From Octopus vulgaris (lineage: Eukaryota), in the NCBI GenBank assembly GCA_951406725.2, contig OX597819.1, positions 3,720,001 to 3,784,000 on the forward strand: a stretch of 64,000 nt of DNA, written 5' to 3'. A program made the position numbers and the translations under genes. The notes below the pieces were generated by a model that saw only the letters and a program-made list of their open reading frames with translations, did not search any database and was not told the origin of the DNA. Position 1 is the first letter of the stretch, and every line of letters starts with the position of its first letter. Shown one piece after another: positions 3,276 to 52,679 of this stretch.

Positions 3276-3851
3276 ACTGCTCTACTTTTAAATGATATTT
3301 GTCTTATAATTTATAAAGCGTAAGTTATAATTCAAACATCAAATTTAATTATAATACCCATTTATTGACTGGCCTATGCAGCCTTCTTCATTAACATAAT
3401 TCCTGGATGAAGAGGTTCATCTCACTCTTCACTTTACTTATCTCAGTTTTCTAGAAAGTATTATGAAAATATAGAGATTATTTCCCCACTCCTTTTATAT
3501 CTGTAGACTTTTAATGTTCAATAGTTTCAAATAACAGATTAAAATGCTTTACAACTAAGCTTCCTGTTAATCTGAAAATGTTTACCTTGTATCAGTTTTT
3601 TGATGTGTGGTCCAAAAAATTTCAGTAAATAATTTTGCAGCTGTCGCATTCGAAAATATAGTATTTCCTTAATATATTAAGAGCTTTTATAAAATGTTTT
3701 TAGATACTGGTTTCATGTTAACATGTTCTGTAAGAAATATTCTTGCAGCCGGAAATTGTTGTTACATCTTATACATTCTTAAGCAGAAATATAGAAAATA
3801 AGGAAATATATGTGTATATGTGTATCTTAATAAAGACAGAAGTATTAATAC

Positions 3852-4239
3852 CAAAAACAATCCTTATGTTCAACTTAACGTAGATGTTTTGTTTGAACAC
3901 CGAATAGAGCGTTATTTGCCAAGACAGATCTTTCATAAAGACTGGTCGTTCTTAAAGTGCTGCGACATCTGTTCCAAAAAAAGCACTGAAATCCTATATA
4001 TTGCTGTCCGTTGTTATGTCGCTACCGGACGTCTGCCACTGAGGAACCCAAAACAGGGTGAAATCACGTGATCTGGCTGTCTCGGTGGCTGTAGCAGACA
4101 TTCTTCGTCTGTCAAAGATATAAATACGAGTGCTTTTATGTACCACGAAGTCATATGAGAGGTTCTTTCTAGATAAATAAAGCAGTGTCCGGTGTTGTAA
4201 CAAAACATCCACGTTAAGTTGGACATACAGATTGCCTTT

Positions 4240-4241
<2 letters not shown>
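3852..4241 (+). mobile_element. About 390-bp non-coding cassette with diverged inverted terminal arms around an HHR, ending in (TA)n
   Basis: 3852-3902 caaaaacaatccttatgttcaacttaacgtagatgttttgtttgaacaccg matches the reverse complement of 4190-4241 (caaaaggcaatctgtatgtccaacttaacgtggatgttttgttacaacaccg). Weaker similarity continues inward. Confidence 0.7.
4021..4089 (+). ncRNA. Type I hammerhead ribozyme, canonical core
   Basis: GCCA-CTGAGGA-ACCC(aaaaca)GGGT-GAAA-TCACGTGA-TC-TGGC. Stem I GCCA/TGGC is extended by GAC/GTC and GCTACCG/CGGTGGC. Stem III is palindromic. Predicted cleavage after AUC at 4073. Confidence 0.85.
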
Positions 4242-4277
<36 letters not shown>

Positions 4278-4801
4278 TTATAAACATTGGCCGCACTTTC
4301 CACATTTCACATCGATACCTAACCTTGCATTTGTAGAAATTTCCACACTGAACTAGAACTATCCATCTCAAAGATTAACCTCCTATCAACAATAAGAATT
4401 GAGACATGTCGCTCCAACCAGTACAAAGGTAGTCCGAAATAATTTCATCTTCCTCCAATGGTCTTAATTAAAATTCATTGATTACAAACATGTGTAAAAT
4501 TAATGATTGTCCCATCCCGTTTAACAATATTTTTTTTACTACAATCTCTACATATTTAAGTTAATTATTGCGAACGCTTAGATACAACACTCACACCCTT
4601 CCAAAGTCAATATATTCTTGTATAAACTGCAAACAATATATTGTGCTCCATAGTACTAAACAGCCCAAATCGGGCGAAACTGAGTATCGTGTCTATTTCT
4701 GATGCAACGTCCCTTCCTTCCTGAGCGTCCAATAATACTATATTTGTTCCACGTCCTTGCGTTGTTGTGTTTGCTCTATGTGTTTTCATGTTTGGATTAA
4801 C

Positions 4802-4859
<58 letters not shown>

Positions 4860-4869
4860 ATACTAAGCA

Positions 4870-5126
4870 ATAAAGGGTTTAGCAACGAATTGCCTTACCA
4901 CATACCGAATTTAGAAATAGCAGTCAAAGATTTATAGCTATTTCTTCTACTAAAAAGGGAGATCTCAGTAAAAACAGCAATTGGAAGGCAGACACAAACA
5001 GGTAAGAGAGAATGAATTGACGGCAATCTAAGATCTCCCTTTTTAGTAGAAGAAATAGCTATAAATCTTTGACTGCTATTTCTAAATTCGGTATGTGGTA
5101 AGGCAATTCGTTGCTAAACCCTTTAT
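4870..5126. repeat. Perfect 96-bp inverted repeat with 65-bp spacer
   Basis: 4870-4965 is the exact reverse complement of 5031-5126. The cassette is flanked by (TA)n runs. Confidence 0.95.
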
Positions 5127-5361
5127 AGTATTACTTAAATTTTCCTCGAATGAGGCTTTTACATGCCGAAGACTACTTGGTGTAATTGATAATTATTCCA
5201 AATTAATTAATTTCACCCTTCATTATTACGGATAACCATATATATTTATATATATATATAGTTAATCCAAACAACAAGAAAACACAAAAAAACACAGCAA
5301 CGCGAGGAAGTGGAACAAATAAAGTATTATTGGGCGCTCAGGAAAGAAGGGAAGAAGGAGG

Positions 5362-6212: not shown

Positions 6213-6456
6213 ATATTTTATGCTTGACTGTCGCCGAATTCAAATCTGGTATAACTGCATCATGAAAATTCTGAAAAGATTCAAATTTCAAAATATTATC
6301 GTAAGAAAATTTGGTTAGAACAAGGAAGCAAATACTTTGGTAGTGAGTAGAGTATCAAACTCAGTAAAATGATAAGTAAAAAATAAAGACCATTCCAAAA
6401 TTTTCATGATGCAGTTATACCAGATTTGAATTCGGCGACAGTCAAGCATAAAATAT
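6213..6456. repeat. Perfect 58-bp inverted repeat with 128-bp spacer
   Basis: 6213-6270 atattttatgcttgactgtcgccgaattcaaatctggtataactgcatcatgaaaatt is the reverse complement of 6399-6456. Confidence 0.92.
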
Positions 6457-9680: not shown

Positions 9681-11158
9681 AAACCCCAGTTTTCAAGAAA
9701 GGCAAAAAGTCACTCGCCGTGAATTACCGACCGATCTTACCTCTCATATCATCAAATTATTTGAGAGAGTGGTGAGATCTTGACTAACTCAGTTCTTGGA
9801 ATCTAACAGTCTAATTATTCCCAACCAACATGGCTTCTACAATGGAAGGGACTGCTTAACATAACTCTTGCATTATTTCAATTACATCTTAAAGGCCATG
9901 GGAGAGGGATCCAATGCAGATGCCATATACCTTGACTTCAGCAAAGCCTTTGACAGGGTTGATCGCTGCATCCTGTTAAAGAAACAGTCCAACATTGGAG
10001 TCCGAGATAAACTGTTAACTTGGATGAAATGTTTTCTGATGAACAGAACTCAACATGTAGTGATTGATGGTGTCCGATCGATCTCAGCCAGGATTATAAG
10101 TGGAGTCCCACAAAGTACTGTATTGGGTCCGCTCCTTTTCATAATTTATATTAACGACATCACTGACGTCATCAAATACATTAGCATGTATATTTTCGCG
10201 GATGACTCCATGGTACCGAAGGTTGTTGACAGGGTTGAAGACCAGATAAACCTTCAATCTGATATGTTTGCTATTATCCAATGGGCGGAGAAATATAATA
10301 TGCAGGTAAACGAGAACAAATTCAATCTAATCCACTTCGATGAAATGATTGCCTCCCAACAACCATATACTCTTCCCTCGGGCGAAACCTTCGTGGCAGC
10401 CAGCACTGCTAGAGACCTGGGTGTTACTGTTGACAACAAAATAAGCTGGAGTGCTCACATAAACAGCAAAGTTGACGTGGCTGCAGGACATGCTCCTGGA
10501 TCCTCAGGACCTTCCGTTGTTCTACTTTTCTCTACTTTTACTGACCCTCACCTAGAATACTGTTGTCCGCTGTGGTTCTCTCCCCACACGATACAGAATA
10601 TTATGAAAATTGAAGCTCCCCAGAGATCAATCATACACAAAAAAGAAATAGACGACATGACAAGCCTTGACTATCGGGATCGACTCAAAAAGCTCAGTTC
10701 TTATTCCCTCCAACGCCGCCGTGAGCGTTATATCATCTGTATGATGTGGAAAATGTTCCATATCAAGATTACCCAAATGACATAAGTATCATCTTTAAAA
10801 TTCATCCGAGGCTTAGCCCCCGTGCCATCCGTCCACTACAGAAATCACATTCGTGTCGTATCACAATACTACGACAAAACTATTTCACCTCAACTGGCCC
10901 TGCTCTCTTCAACGTCGTGCCAGGCCACATAAAGGAGGAAAGCGATTTCACGGCATTCAAATGGTCCCTAGATGATTACTTCCGACAAATACCAGACAAA
11001 CTACCCACACCCGGGTATGTCTCTGAAAACAGTAACTCTCTGCTCGAATGGGCTATGGTGCCCAAGGGCTAACTCTGTATCTCTTCCTGGTGGTGCTATT
11101 AAATCAGACATGGCCTGGGCCAACTTCGGTCAAAACTTATCAAAGTAACCTAAGTAAA
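9681..11158 (+). mobile_element. 5'-truncated CR1/L2-group LINE (RT pseudogene)
   Basis: Upstream fragments read NYRPI and NQHGF. ORF 9868-10785 has YLDFSKAFDRVD, SGVPQSTVLGPLLFIIYIND, FADD, RDLGV, LEYC and SLQRRRER, and continues by frameshift in ORF 10746-11072. Confidence 0.9.
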
Positions 11159-31644: not shown

Positions 31645-31739
31645 AAAGTTTAGATATACATATATATGTAGCTATATAACTGGTAGAAATGTGACTGGTT
31701 GCATCTGCTTGTTGTTTATACACCTGTCTTCGTCGTCTT

Positions 31740-33876
31740 TTGTTTTTCTGTAAATTTCTGCTATATATATATATATACGATAAATACAACGAGGACGAAT
31801 CGTTAGCCAGAAATAGGAGTAACTACACCCCCTCGAAAGGTAAGAACAAAACACTTGATGATTTCTGTGACCACATATCAAATTACCCATATCAACATAT
31901 GCACAAACAAAAACACAAACCAAACTTCAGCAAAAAAGAATGGACTGAGTTGAACAAATTAAAACTAGATAAAACAATAACAATCAAAGAGGCCGATAAA
32001 GGGAGTGCTGTTGTCTTAATGGATACGACATTTTACATAACTTTGGTACTTTCTATGCTGGAAGACACAACATACTATGAAAAGGCACAAAACTACAGTC
32101 AACAAAAAATAATGAGGGAACTAAAATCCATATTAAACCCATACGAAGCAGGGCTCACCGACAAAGAATATGATTATATGACCAATTTCACAAGTAAAAC
32201 TAGCCAATTCTACGGTATACCTAAGATCCACAAAAGTGAAAAAATAAGCAACGCATGCAAGATAGCTACAGACAAAATAATTAAAGTCCCTAATCCTAAT
32301 GACCTCAAATTGAGACCCATAATAGCAGGTCCCGCATGCGAAACCCACCGCCTCAGTAACTTTTTAGACACCCTGTTAAAACCACTCCTCAAACATGTCA
32401 AAAGCTATATAAGGGACGACTTAGATATGCTCAATCACCTACCGAATACTATAAACAAAAACACCATACTGGTATCCTTCGATGTAGTCAACCTCTACTC
32501 CAATACCCCCCACAACCTAGGACTAGAGGCAATCCAATTCTGGCTAGAGAATCACGCCAACGAACTACCACACCGCATCAAAAAAGAATTTGTGATAGAA
32601 GGGGTTAAATTAATCCTGGAAAATAACTTCTTCGCCTTCAATGACAACTTCTACCGACAAAAACCGGGGACTGCGATGGGTACACGAATGGCCCCCTCCT
32701 TTGCCAACCTAGTCATAGGATACCTAGAGATCAGTCTGTATCGTAAGGTTCTAGAAAGATATGGCAGCCCTTTCTCCATCTACATAGAAAACAACTGGAA
32801 GAGATATCTAGATGACTGTTTCATCCTTTGGCATAAAAATATAGAAAAACTCATAGAATTCCAGAAAATTTTAAACGGACTGGACGTAAACATCCAATTC
32901 ACGATGGAATATAGCCAACAACAACTCCCCTTCCTCGATATCCTCATTAAGAAAGCTAATAATATAATAGAAACAGACATATACTATAAGCCTACAGACT
33001 CTAAGCAATATCTTCCATTCAATTCATGCCACCCCAGACACACCAGGATGAATATCCCCTTCAATCTAGCAAAAAGGATATGCACTATAGTCTCTAACGC
33101 AAACACCAGAGACACACGACTACAAGAACTAAAAGATACCCTAATCACCAGGAACTATCCACCTTCACTTATTGACAAGTGCATTCAACGTGCCCTTCAA
33201 CTTAACATCAAGGAACTGAGACATCCCAAATCAAAGAAAAACTTACAACCAAAAGCCTTACCATACATCTCCACACACAACCCTCTCAATAACGAAGCCT
33301 TCGACACCATCCTCCACAACATACCCCTCCTAAAAAAAGACCACAGAATGAACACAATCCTCCAAACACACACGATCATAAAAAGCAAAAGACAGCCTAG
33401 ATCCATGAAAAGTCTCCTTACACAAGCCCGAATTCACTCCTCAACACAGAAGTCGACAGTAAAAAAATGTGGAAGACCCAATTGCGGGATATGCGACTAT
33501 CTAATTGAGGGATCAGAGTTCTCCTTCAAACAGGGACAACGGTTTACAGTGAAAAGCAACTTCACATGTGCTTCGGAGAACCTAATATACTCACTAACCT
33601 GCTCCGGGTGTCAAGAGCAGTACATAGGCCAAACAAAAAATGGTTTGCGTAAACGAATGGCCCTGCACAGATCCCAGATAAAAATTCCCCAAAACAGAAA
33701 AATAGCTTTTAGCCAACACATAGATACTTGCGCCAACAAAAAAAACACCAAACTTCAGAATTTTCCCCCTCTACCAATTTAGGGACGATACAACCTCGAG
33801 ACAACGAATAAGTAAAGAAAATCTCTTTATTACAAAATACAAGCCACTTCTAAACGGGTCTACGACAAACAATTAA
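31740..33876 (+). CDS. Penelope-like (Neptune-type) RT + GIY-YIG endonuclease, 5'-truncated, one frameshift
   Basis: IKEADKGS, FYGIPKIHK, LRPII, FDVVNLYSN, GTAMGTRMAP, RYLDD, LPFLDI, YYKPT, SCHP, Cys linker CGRPNCGIC, and NLIYSLTC..C...YIGQT. After the A8 run (33738-33745) the +1 frame continues ...RISKENLFITKYKPLLN to a stop at 33874-33876. The first codons of the called ORF overlap the (TA)n flank. Confidence 0.93.
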
Positions 33877-49300: not shown

Positions 49301-49956
49301 AATGCATACAAACGAAATATTGATTTAGTTTTTAAACTACTTAGATAAATAAATGTTGGGAACGTATCATTCAAACTCGAGTATTTTCGCATATAAATAT
49401 CAATAGCTATCATCTAAATCTTACATAAGGTGTCTCTAAGGCACCTGCATGCTAGCAAATAAAACTGTATTTCTAGTATGTTGAGTCATAATCACAATGT
49501 AGCTTATCATTTAGATGGTGAAGTAGATGGAAGAAGAAACATATTTAGTCTCAATTTGAAGGCAATTTATATTTAGTAATTAGATTACCACCACAACAAA
49601 TTATCGCATAAATTCAATTTATATAAACTGCTTTTCCCTAATATAGAATTGTTTGTAACTAGAAGCTATTTTGATTTGGCGTCATCTAATTACGGCTCAG
49701 CTCGTTCTATTTGATAAACTTATACATTCATGTCTATAAGACTCATCCAAAAGACTCAAATAAACTCGGAAAATATTCAGTCACCTTTATGGAATTAAAA
49801 TCAGCTTTTCATTAGGATATACATGCAATAGGCATTTTGAATGGGTCCTTTCTAAATTATATTTGACAAGTAAATAGGTGGTGGAAGAAACACGATTTGT
49901 TTTGAGGGAATCCGATTTCGACAGAGATACTTCAAGCAATATTTAATTTCACTCTG

Positions 49957-52475
49957 CTTCTTCTTCTTCTTCTTCTTCTTCTTCTTCTTCTTCTTCTTCT
50001 TCTTCTTCTTCTTCTTCTTCTTCTTCTTCTTCTCCTCCTCCTCCTCCTCCTTCTTCTTCTTCTTCTTCTTCTTCTCCTCCTCCTCCTTCTTCTTCTTCTT
50101 CTTCTTCTTCTTTTTTTTTTCTTTTTCTTCTTCTTTTTTTTTCTTTTTCTTTTTCTTCTTCTTCTTTTTCTTCTTCTTCTTCTTCTTCTTCTTCTCCTCC
50201 TTCTTCTTCTTCTTCTTCTTCTTCTTCTTCTTCTTCTTCTTCTTCTTCTTCTTCTTCTCCTCCTCCTTCTTCTTCTTTTTCTTCTTCTTCTTCTTCTTCT
50301 TCTCCTTTTTCTTCTCGTTCTTGTTCTTGTTCTTGTTCTTGTTCTTGTTCTTCTTCTTGTTCTTCTTCTTCTTCTTCTTCTCCTCCTCCTCCTTCTTCTT
50401 CTTTTTCTTCTTCTTCTTTTTCTTCTTCTTCTTTTTCTTCTTCTTCTTCTTCTTCTTCTTCTTCTTCTCCTCCTTCTTCTTTTTCTTCTTCTTCTTCTTC
50501 TTCTTCTTCTTCTTCTCCTCCTCCTCCTTCTTCTTCTTTTTCTTCTTCTTCTTCTTCTTCTCCTTTTTCTTCTCGTTCTTGTTCTTGTTCTTGTTCTTGT
50601 TCTTGTTCTTGTTCTTCTTCTTCTTCTTCTTCTTCTTCTTCTTCTTCTTCTCCTCCTCCTCCTTCTTCTTCTTTTTCTTCTTCTTCTTTTTCTTCTTCTT
50701 CTTCTTCTTCTTCTCCTCCTCCTCCTTCTTCTTCTTCTTCTTCTTCTTCTTCTTTTTTTCTTTTTCTTTTTCTTCTTTTTTTTTCTTTTTCTTTTTCTTC
50801 TTCTTCTTTTTCTTCTTCTTCTTCTTCTTCTTCTCCTCCTCCTCCTCCTTCTTCTTCTTCTTCTTCTTTCTTTTTTTTTTTTTTCTTTTTCTTCTTCTTT
50901 TTTTTTCTTTTTCTTTTTCTTCTTCTTCTTTTTCTTCTTCTTCTTCTTCTTCTTCTTCTTCTCCTCCTTCTTCTTCTTCTTCTTCTTCTTCTTCTTCTTC
51001 TTCTTCTTCTTCTTCTTCTTCTTCTCCTCCTTCTTCTTCTTCTTCTTCTTTTCCTTCTTCTTCTTCTTCTTCTCCTTTTTCTTCTCGTTCTTGTTCTTGT
51101 TCTTGTTCTTGTTCTTGTTCTTCTTCTTGTTCTTCTTCTTCTTCTTCTTCTTCTTCTTCTTCTTCTTCTTCTCCTCCTCCTCCTTCTTCTTCTTTTTCTT
51201 CTTCTTCTTCTTCTTCTTCTTCTTCTTCTTCTTCTTCTTCTCCTCCTTCTTCTTCTTCTTCTTCTTCTTTTTCTTCTTCTTGTTCTTGTTCTTCTTCTTC
51301 TTCTTCTTCTTCTTCTTCTCCTCCTCCTCCTTCTTCTTCTTCTTCTTCTTCTTCTTCTTCTTTTTTTTTCTTTTTCTTTTTCTTCTTCTTCTTTTTTCTT
51401 CTTCTTCTTCTTCTTCTTCTTCTCCTCCTCCTTCTTCTTCTTCTTCTTCTTTTTTTTTCTTTTTCTTTTTCTTCTTCTTCTTTTTTTTTCTTTTTCTTTT
51501 TCTTCTTCTTCTTTTTCTTCTTCTTCTTCTTCTTCTTCTTCTTCTTCTCCTCCTTCTTCTTCTTCTTCTTCTTCTTCTTCTTCTTCTTCTTCTTCTTCTT
51601 CTTCTTCTCCTCCTTCTTCTTCTTCTTCTTCTTTTTCTTCTTCTTCTTCTTCTTCTCCTTTTTCTTCTCGTTCTTGTTCTTGTTCTTGTTCTTGTTCTTC
51701 TTCTTGTTCTTCTTGTTCTTCTTCTTCTTCTTCTTCTTCTTCTTCTTCTTCTTCTTCTCCTCCTCCTTCTTCTTCTTTTTCTTCTTCTTCTTCTTCTTCT
51801 CCCTTTTCTTCTCGTTCTTGTTCTTGTTCTTGTTCTTGTTCTTGTTCTTCTTCTTCTTCTTCTTCTTCTTCTTCTTCTTCTCCTCCTCCTCCTTCTTCTT
51901 CTTTTTCTTTTTCTTCTTCTTCTTCTCCTTTTTCTTCTCGTTCTTGTTCTTGTTCTTGTTCTTGTTCTTGTTCTTCTTCTTCTTCTTCTTCTTCTTCTTC
52001 TTCTTCTTCTTCTCCTCCTCCTCCTTCTTCTTCTTTTTCTTCTTCTTCTTCTTCTTCTCCTTTTTCTTCTCGTTCTTGTTCTTGTTCTTGTTCTTCTTCT
52101 TCTTCTTCTTCTTCTTCTTCTTCTTCTTCTTCTTCTTCTCCTCCTTCTTCTTCTTTTTCTTCTTCTTCTTCTTCTTCTTCTTTTTCTTCTCCTCCTCCTT
52201 CTTCTTCTTTTTCTTCTTCTTCTTCTTCTTCTTCTTCTTCTTCTTCTTCTTCTTCTTCTCCTCCTCCTTCTTCTTCTTCTTCTTCTTCTTCTTCTTCTTC
52301 TTCTTCTTCTTCTTCTTCTTCTCCTCCTCTTCTTCTTCTTCTTCTTCTTCTTCTTCTTCTTCTCCTTCTTCTTCTTCTTCTTCTTCTTCTCCTCCTTCTT
52401 CTTCTTCTTCTTCTTCTTCTTCTTCTTCTTCTTCTTCTTCTTCTTCTTCTTCTTCTTCTTCGTCGTCGTCGTCGT
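49957..52475. repeat. About 2.5-kb compound (TTC)n/(GAA)n tract
   Basis: TTC with TCC, TTT and TTG variants and a recurring motif ctcctttttcttctcgttcttg(ttcttg)n. Source of the 473-878 aa low-complexity ORFs. Confidence 0.97.
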
Positions 52476-52679
52476 CGGCGGCGTCCATCCCATCTTTACA
52501 TGGTTACTTTAAGATTACATTGTCAAATGTGCTCTTTCTTTATTGTAAGCTGTAAGTCGTGATTTTAAAGAGATTTGACTGCTATTTCTCGGACGTGGAG
52601 TGACGGCGTAGAGACTCATTTGCATTAGAGTTATTCGTATAAACTTCTTCAATCTCTTATAACAACTTGAATTCCACAA

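Follow-up and report, generated by a model that had tools for sequence, protein, structure and literature searches.

A hammerhead motif within a foldback probably marks one old insertion of a dispersed repeat of about 349 nucleotides, with an inverted second piece

A hammerhead ribozyme motif lies between two inverted arms at positions 3852-4241 of the window, the 64,000-nucleotide stretch of DNA analysed here. The question raised by this locus is whether the foldback is an element in its own right, either a rod-like RNA with a ribozyme at its tip or a MITE-like element, as an earlier note had suggested, or whether it arose in some other way. Our preferred reading, to which we assign a probability of roughly 0.8, is that the locus represents a single, old insertion of a dispersed hammerhead repeat of about 349 nt, likely a non-autonomous, non-LTR retrozyme mobilised by Penelope-like elements (PLEs), and that the foldback was created by an inverted second piece of this repeat.

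The motif (Table 1) has the CUGANGA, GAAA and UH core segments, three stems and an open stem I. The intact core and the short stem II remarked on in the earlier note are both borne out by sequence and folding, and folding likewise closes the outer helix, a bulged and extended stem I, at 4021/4089. The Rfam model Hammerhead_HH9 (RF02275) matches 4021-4095 with an E-value of 6e-5 and 28.5 bits, against a gathering score of 52; across the whole window no match reached the gathering score of any Rfam model. The motif resembles HH9 in its type I topology, its bulged extended stem I and its 4-bp stem II with an A-rich 6-nt loop, but differs in scoring below the gathering level, in being carried by a decaying repeat, and in two details of its stems. 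One is the A10.1-U11.1 pair, the commonest such pair in the family (40/81 copies); the other lies in stem I, where 4034 and 4078 form a U·U mismatch and most relatives have a U-A pair. Among the 81 copies scored for core and palindrome, all from loci not chosen by the core pattern, the core is intact in 38, so that an intact core at the window locus is unremarkable. The stem III palindrome is intact in 7, and both are intact in only 2 including the window copy, a combination less easily put down to chance. Palindrome losses in the family look, from the sequences, mostly like CpG decay.

Table 1. Features of the hammerhead locus and the insertion that carries it (window coordinates).
Feature	Position	Strand	Basis or remark
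Inverted 5'-truncated monomer piece, no hammerhead	3827..3956	-	107/130 identical to family yardstick
Extension of about 25 nt, this end only	3827..3851	-	alignment to monomer; likeness to a PLE 'tail' inferred
Head-to-head (5' to 5') junction, 4 nt in neither piece	3957..3960	.	breakpoint unique to locus
Forward 5'-truncated monomer piece, monomer positions ~36-327	3961..4241	+	250/288 aligned positions match yardstick
Type I hammerhead motif	4021..4089	+	sequence, Rfam HH9 match, folding, covariation among relatives
Hammerhead core CUGAGGA	4039-4045	+	read from sequence
Stem II, 4 bp, 6-nt loop	4046-4049/4056-4059	+	sequence and folding; A10.1-U11.1
GAAA core segment	4060-4063	+	read from sequence
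10-nt palindromic stem III	4063-4072	+	read from sequence
Predicted cleavage site	3' of C4073	+	sequence-based prediction
(TA)n microsatellite at 3' end	4242..4273	.	sequence

The arms, which had been placed at 3852-3960 and 4130-4241, are indeed complementary in inverted orientation (78% over 76 nt ungapped, 87/113 positions with gaps), but those boundaries do not hold, as the left arm reaches out to 3827. The inverted piece corresponds to ~220-349 of the monomer and continues for 7 nt into the unit that follows, and its terminal extension may be analogous to the one-sided PLE 'tail' described in the available text of PMC8557442. The forward piece, at 82% identity by BLAST, has a 10-nt deletion near 4001. 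At the right, the insertion stops inside a longer monomer at the (TA)n tract, which is likely the insertion target, and the window copy is itself shorter than one unit. The predicted fold of 3852-4241 is stable (z = -9.0 on the plus strand). The minus strand of the cassette folds equally well, however (z = -9.6), while the forward piece alone reaches only z = -1.9; the stability thus stems from the inverted duplication. The 390-bp cassette is not a unit. Contigs from three runs, two studies and three organism labels cover the locus and its flanks, and two of these bridge the inversion junction with few differences (X1 record 1, over the whole stretch, and X3 record 17, over 3500-4054), so the junction is no assembly artefact. 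The locus is therefore genuine and also exists outside this assembly, though the source of the best contig could be related to that of the assembly. No further family copy was found elsewhere in the window or in the 10 kb upstream of it, and inspection by eye of the window's open reading frames of at least 110 aa revealed no host gene exon.

A search of the 2.8-Gb, microsatellite-rich animal genome, whose size and repeat content would suit a cephalopod, with the cassette as query gave 875 first-look candidates. Among the best 40, which were scored, the highest non-self identity was 81%, and in the 39 other than the window itself the best match began at query position 110-199 and ended near 390, so that the left arm was missing. 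A profile built from 66 segments gave a unit period of 349 nt. The unit is non-coding, with PLE coding sequence absent, and natural tandems of the monomer occur, for example at L021, L026, L093 and L118. Median pairwise identity is 73%, and the best is 85.6% apart from one pair at 94.6%. Exact pattern searches of the genome found 24 matches to a family pattern and 5 to a two-core pattern, the latter all in a sister subfamily, and neither search found a long or young array. This divergence and these low counts suggest that the family has died out in this assembly. L021, which has two intact cores, has damaged palindromes, and L166 carries two U3-A8 cores. Contigs of four presumed-RNA runs, compared with the near-typical copy L029, contain only short family fragments that pass into unrelated sequence, none of them covering a whole unit, and a fifth run (X4) has six short pieces; ends, strand and circles are not resolvable in such contigs. 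Our literature search found no published description of the family, although repeat databases (Repbase/Dfam) or preprint supplements may contain one.

The sister subfamily (L163-L197), with units of about 350 nt, yielded 1947 candidates and includes dimers and trimers. Its core is mostly of the U3-A8 type (15/27 pattern matches), with U3-G8 and C3-A8 intermediates. Its copies share the 3' zone described below, and 33 loci contain three head-to-head junctions and no tail-to-tail junction. At one locus of the main family, L092 (G000:C25:28682646-28682894, minus strand), near-identical 107-nt tandem mini-units end at the hammerhead cleavage site and then jump back to unit position ~50; they may have arisen by slippage between short stretches of microhomology or from a mini-circle released by cleavage. 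A pair of loci bearing the same hammerhead 5.5 kb apart (L081/L082) was considered as the two pseudo-LTRs (pLTRs) of a PLE and rejected, because the two belong to a duplicated stretch that measures at least 1.1 kb and is 99.8% identical.

The architecture of the insertions was compared across family loci. Removal of 20 loci from 128, as duplicates or the same place, left 108, of which 84 had a main segment of at least 130 nt and at least 75% identity to the yardstick. The 3' ends of 73/84 loci fall within one 75-nt zone, a count biased by the three DNA queries, which ended in or near that zone, against 20/84 for the 5' ends. Among loci chosen by the core pattern alone, 13/25 end in the 3' zone where about 5 would be expected; diverged subfamilies in this set were likely cut short by BLAST. 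We found 34 head-to-head junctions, in 33/84 loci, and no tail-to-tail junction. The inverted partners join at 34 different breakpoints, that of the window being seen at the window only. Insertions are longer than one monomer in 35/84 loci, extending to 834 nt, and the upstream sequence is then another monomer. Ends are rare around the cleavage site (monomer positions 150-170), with 2/84 5' ends and 2/84 3' ends. In 26/84 loci a microsatellite lies no more than 45 nt from the 3' end, whereas only 10% of positions drawn at random from these loci have one that close. Within 30 inverted pairs the arms are slightly more alike (median identity 0.80) than arms are to other copies (0.76), which lends weak support to a single insertion event.

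These observations bear directly on the suggestion of a MITE-like DNA transposon whose terminal inverted repeats enclose the hammerhead. The window cassette is short and non-coding, like MITEs and foldback DNA transposons, and inverted arms do flank its motif. The family, however, has neither fixed ends nor shared arms: no second copy among the 84 loci has the same two arms, most copies have no inverted arm at all, and the two ends are asymmetric. No target-site duplication was seen by eye in the flanks, both of which are TA/TG-rich. Clustered 3' ends, scattered 5' ends, the excess of head-to-head junctions and the lengths beyond one monomer together exclude MITE terminal repeats, and for the sampled loci a MITE with fixed terminal inverted repeats is refuted; we regard any version of this explanation as extremely improbable. 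The rod-like RNA fares no better, since with a breakpoint unique in 84 loci the 390-nt form is a one-off of a single insertion. The left arm proves to be a stretch of the family's own tail in inverted orientation, essentially the outcome that the earlier note had named as counting against it, but it is probably not an independent insertion and was probably laid down in the same event as the forward piece. Copies retaining both arms, which that note had proposed to look for, did not turn up among the 84 loci; covariation in stem I did (see below).

The same combination of clustered 3' ends, scattered 5' ends, head-to-head junctions and lengths beyond one monomer matches the published architecture of PLE insertions. 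In the available text of PMC8557442 these are 5'-truncated partial tandems whose 5' end often adjoins an inverted, likewise 5'-truncated copy; one of the two ends bears a tail of 30-40 bp, and there is a bias towards microsatellites. PMC11167929, as far as its accessible parts go, describes internal initiation of reverse transcription on uncleaved RNA, AT-rich targets and a hammerhead cleavage that is dispensable. According to the portion of PMC4209133 at hand, PLE pLTRs bear hammerheads, with opposite-strand pairs 100-700 bp apart, and a covariant U3-A8 core is reported for one PLE family. The 349-nt family resembles PLEs as described in these sources in its 5' truncation, partial tandems, adjacent inverted copies, one-sided tail, AT-rich or microsatellite targets, palindromic stem III and position of the hammerhead upstream of the 3' end; it differs in that its unit has no open reading frame.

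Two PLE families of this genome were compared with the monomer. The younger is represented in the window by an open reading frame of 695 aa at 31695-33782 on the plus strand, of the reverse transcriptase/GIY-YIG type, for which a Pfam search gave no hit. Its cysteine linker motif suggests that it may be Neptune-like. All 133 scored matches of this family have at least 97% amino-acid identity. Its full unit (L159-L162) is about 4.4 kb with reading frames of 446 and 784 aa, occurs in tandem and head-to-head copies, and bears, just upstream of ORF1, a weak hammerhead-like match (E = 0.49) whose core is of the U3-A8 type. The older family (L199-L223, ~78% identity) was found beside the monomer locus L012, and its 3' region contains by eye a minimal, U3-A8 hammerhead-like motif, followed about 100-150 nt further on by an AT-rich end. 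The monomer profile matched none of 34 young-PLE loci at E < 1 and none of 24 other older-PLE loci, where the best E was 0.83. A PLE remnant lies 650 nt upstream of L012, but 0/24 other loci of its family carry the monomer, and it was rejected as an autonomous partner on the ground that the adjacency is a matter of chance. An autonomous partner sharing terminal sequence with the monomer was thus not found in either PLE family.

These comparisons also bear on the idea that the copies, foldback included, are 5'-truncated pLTR ends of an extinct autonomous PLE and were never an independent retrozyme. Such an origin would give the same end architecture, would fit the hammerheads and opposite-strand pairs of PLE pLTRs, and would agree with the U3-A8 core of the sister subfamily, which recalls the PLE family in the available part of PMC4209133. 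Against this, what lies upstream in the 35 copies longer than one unit is another monomer; tblastn with PLE proteins detected one remnant in 108 loci, that at L012, and none in 33 sister loci; and the L012 remnant belongs to a family with a different 3' end of its own. The hammerhead, too, is of the canonical kind, with 6 bp in stem I and 4 bp in stem II, and not of the minimal PLE type. We consider this origin improbable, although less so than the MITE.

A retrozyme mobilised by PLE machinery would account for both sets of features. The retrozyme lead of the earlier note is borne out for the family, which has a non-coding unit of 349 nt, within the 150-450-bp range, with one type I hammerhead and tandem occurrence. 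Non-LTR retrozymes are described in the available text of PMC7229834 (Cervera & de la Peña 2020) as units of 150-450 bp, of 350-390 bp in mussel, and the family is like these animal elements in its low-GC unit and absence of LTRs. It also shares with the retrozymes of that paper and of the preprint of Li et al. (10.64898/2026.07.22.740005), as far as their accessible descriptions go, a single canonical type I hammerhead per unit, a range from monomers to short tandems, a strongly self-paired predicted circle (z = -7.0 for the yardstick) and co-occurrence with PLEs. By the testable features given in those sources the family, known here from its genomic copies, classifies as a non-LTR retrozyme. 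Its PLE-mobilisation features are the 3' clustering, 5' truncation, inverted copy, one-sided tail and microsatellite bias, subject to the query bias noted above. It departs from retrozymes in that the copies found are all old, dispersed and truncated, with no young array among them, and from those described in the available text in that about 40% of the sampled loci have an inverted partner. Published inverted retrozyme insertions were not found in our literature search, although subscription papers might describe such.

On this reading of the family as a PLE-mobilised retrozyme, source arrays would be transcribed as multimers, and these would self-cleave, probably in dimeric form by way of the 10-nt palindrome, to give products that may circularise. 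A PLE reverse transcriptase/GIY-YIG endonuclease would nick AT-rich or microsatellite DNA, and reverse transcription would start internally, at a point some 140-215 nt 3' of the cleavage site. Copying would run through the cleavage site and halt at variable points, and an inverted second cDNA would often be added. Copying that passes the cleavage site requires an uncut multimer or a circle as template; that the ends avoid this site suggests a template that was either uncut or circular, and the copies were likely made from multimeric or circular RNA. A more specific version, in which PLE machinery copies a circular RNA of about 349 nt from a fixed internal site through up to two or more turns and leaves PLE-type inverted partners, with the palindrome both enabling dimeric cleavage and locking the core of the monomer circle, is tentative and to our minds somewhat doubtful.

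The predicted behaviour of the ribozyme was assessed by folding and by covariation. The fold energies come from a nearest-neighbour model, which takes account of neither tertiary contacts nor Mg2+. The palindrome seen in the earlier note is present, but its proposed folding as a monomer is not favoured, the stem III hairpin being predicted at +1.1 kcal/mol against -12.9 kcal/mol for the duplex. An unstable hairpin and a stable duplex fit the dimeric cleavage of animal type I hammerheads described in the available text of PMC4209133. The minimum-free-energy fold of the window monomer pairs the core with the palindrome and is inactive; the active fold lies 5.2 kcal/mol higher and makes up about 1e-4 of the predicted ensemble. 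In the yardstick folded as a circle the core is predicted to be locked by the palindrome likewise. The window copy has decayed; it would, by prediction, cleave poorly as a monomer, and it is probably under no selection.

The source ribozymes, in contrast to this copy, were likely functional to judge from covariation across subfamilies. A tight pattern of core plus palindrome has 64 exact matches in the genome, spanning several subfamilies with differing stem II sequences, compared with 0 for a reversed control. In 26 pattern-chosen sequences, stem I and its extension show two-sided changes in 10/14 pairs and are 82% paired, compared with 19-46% in slid controls; cells with two-sided changes number 29 against 16.1 after shuffling (0/500 shuffles), an excess that relatedness among the sequences may inflate, since it can beat shuffles without structure. 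Selection by the core pattern fixes the core and stem III columns of this set, and for stem II the comparison covers one pair.

The remaining possibility that the locus is an exaptation, transcribed and kept by selection as a long hairpin RNA whose tip bears an active ribozyme, draws on the rare joint survival of core and palindrome (2/81 copies), on the fold at z = -9 and on the presence of the locus, at about 1-2% difference, in runs with three organism labels. Those orthologous contigs differ too little to reveal constraint, however, and the arms are only 77% complementary, the distance of either from the yardstick being similar to that of other copies. With the U·U mismatch in stem I, the tiny predicted share of the active fold and a breakpoint unique to the window, we judge exaptation very unlikely. 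Taken as an old retrozyme insertion, the window locus alone is an ordinary decayed repeat, and it carries the warning that a foldback centred on a hammerhead may, in genomes of this sort, be an integration by-product. The wider interest lies in the family. PLE mobilisation of animal retrozymes is a standing hypothesis, based in the accessible text of PMC7229834 and 10.64898/2026.07.22.740005 on co-occurrence and pLTR similarity, and the preprint is by its own account vertebrate-focused; insertion footprints that look PLE-like in an invertebrate give this hypothesis modest genomic support.

Several other features of the window were recorded. A foldback at 4870-5126, with 99-nt arms 99% complementary, is nested within 115-nt arms (4710-5352), and another at 6213-6456 has 64-nt arms 97% complementary; all three are unrelated to the hammerhead family. 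A 306-aa reverse transcriptase fragment on the plus strand at 9865-10785 (Pfam RVT_1, E 2.8e-14) is likely a LINE remnant, and about 2.6 kb of pyrimidine-rich triplet repeats occupy ~49900-52500.
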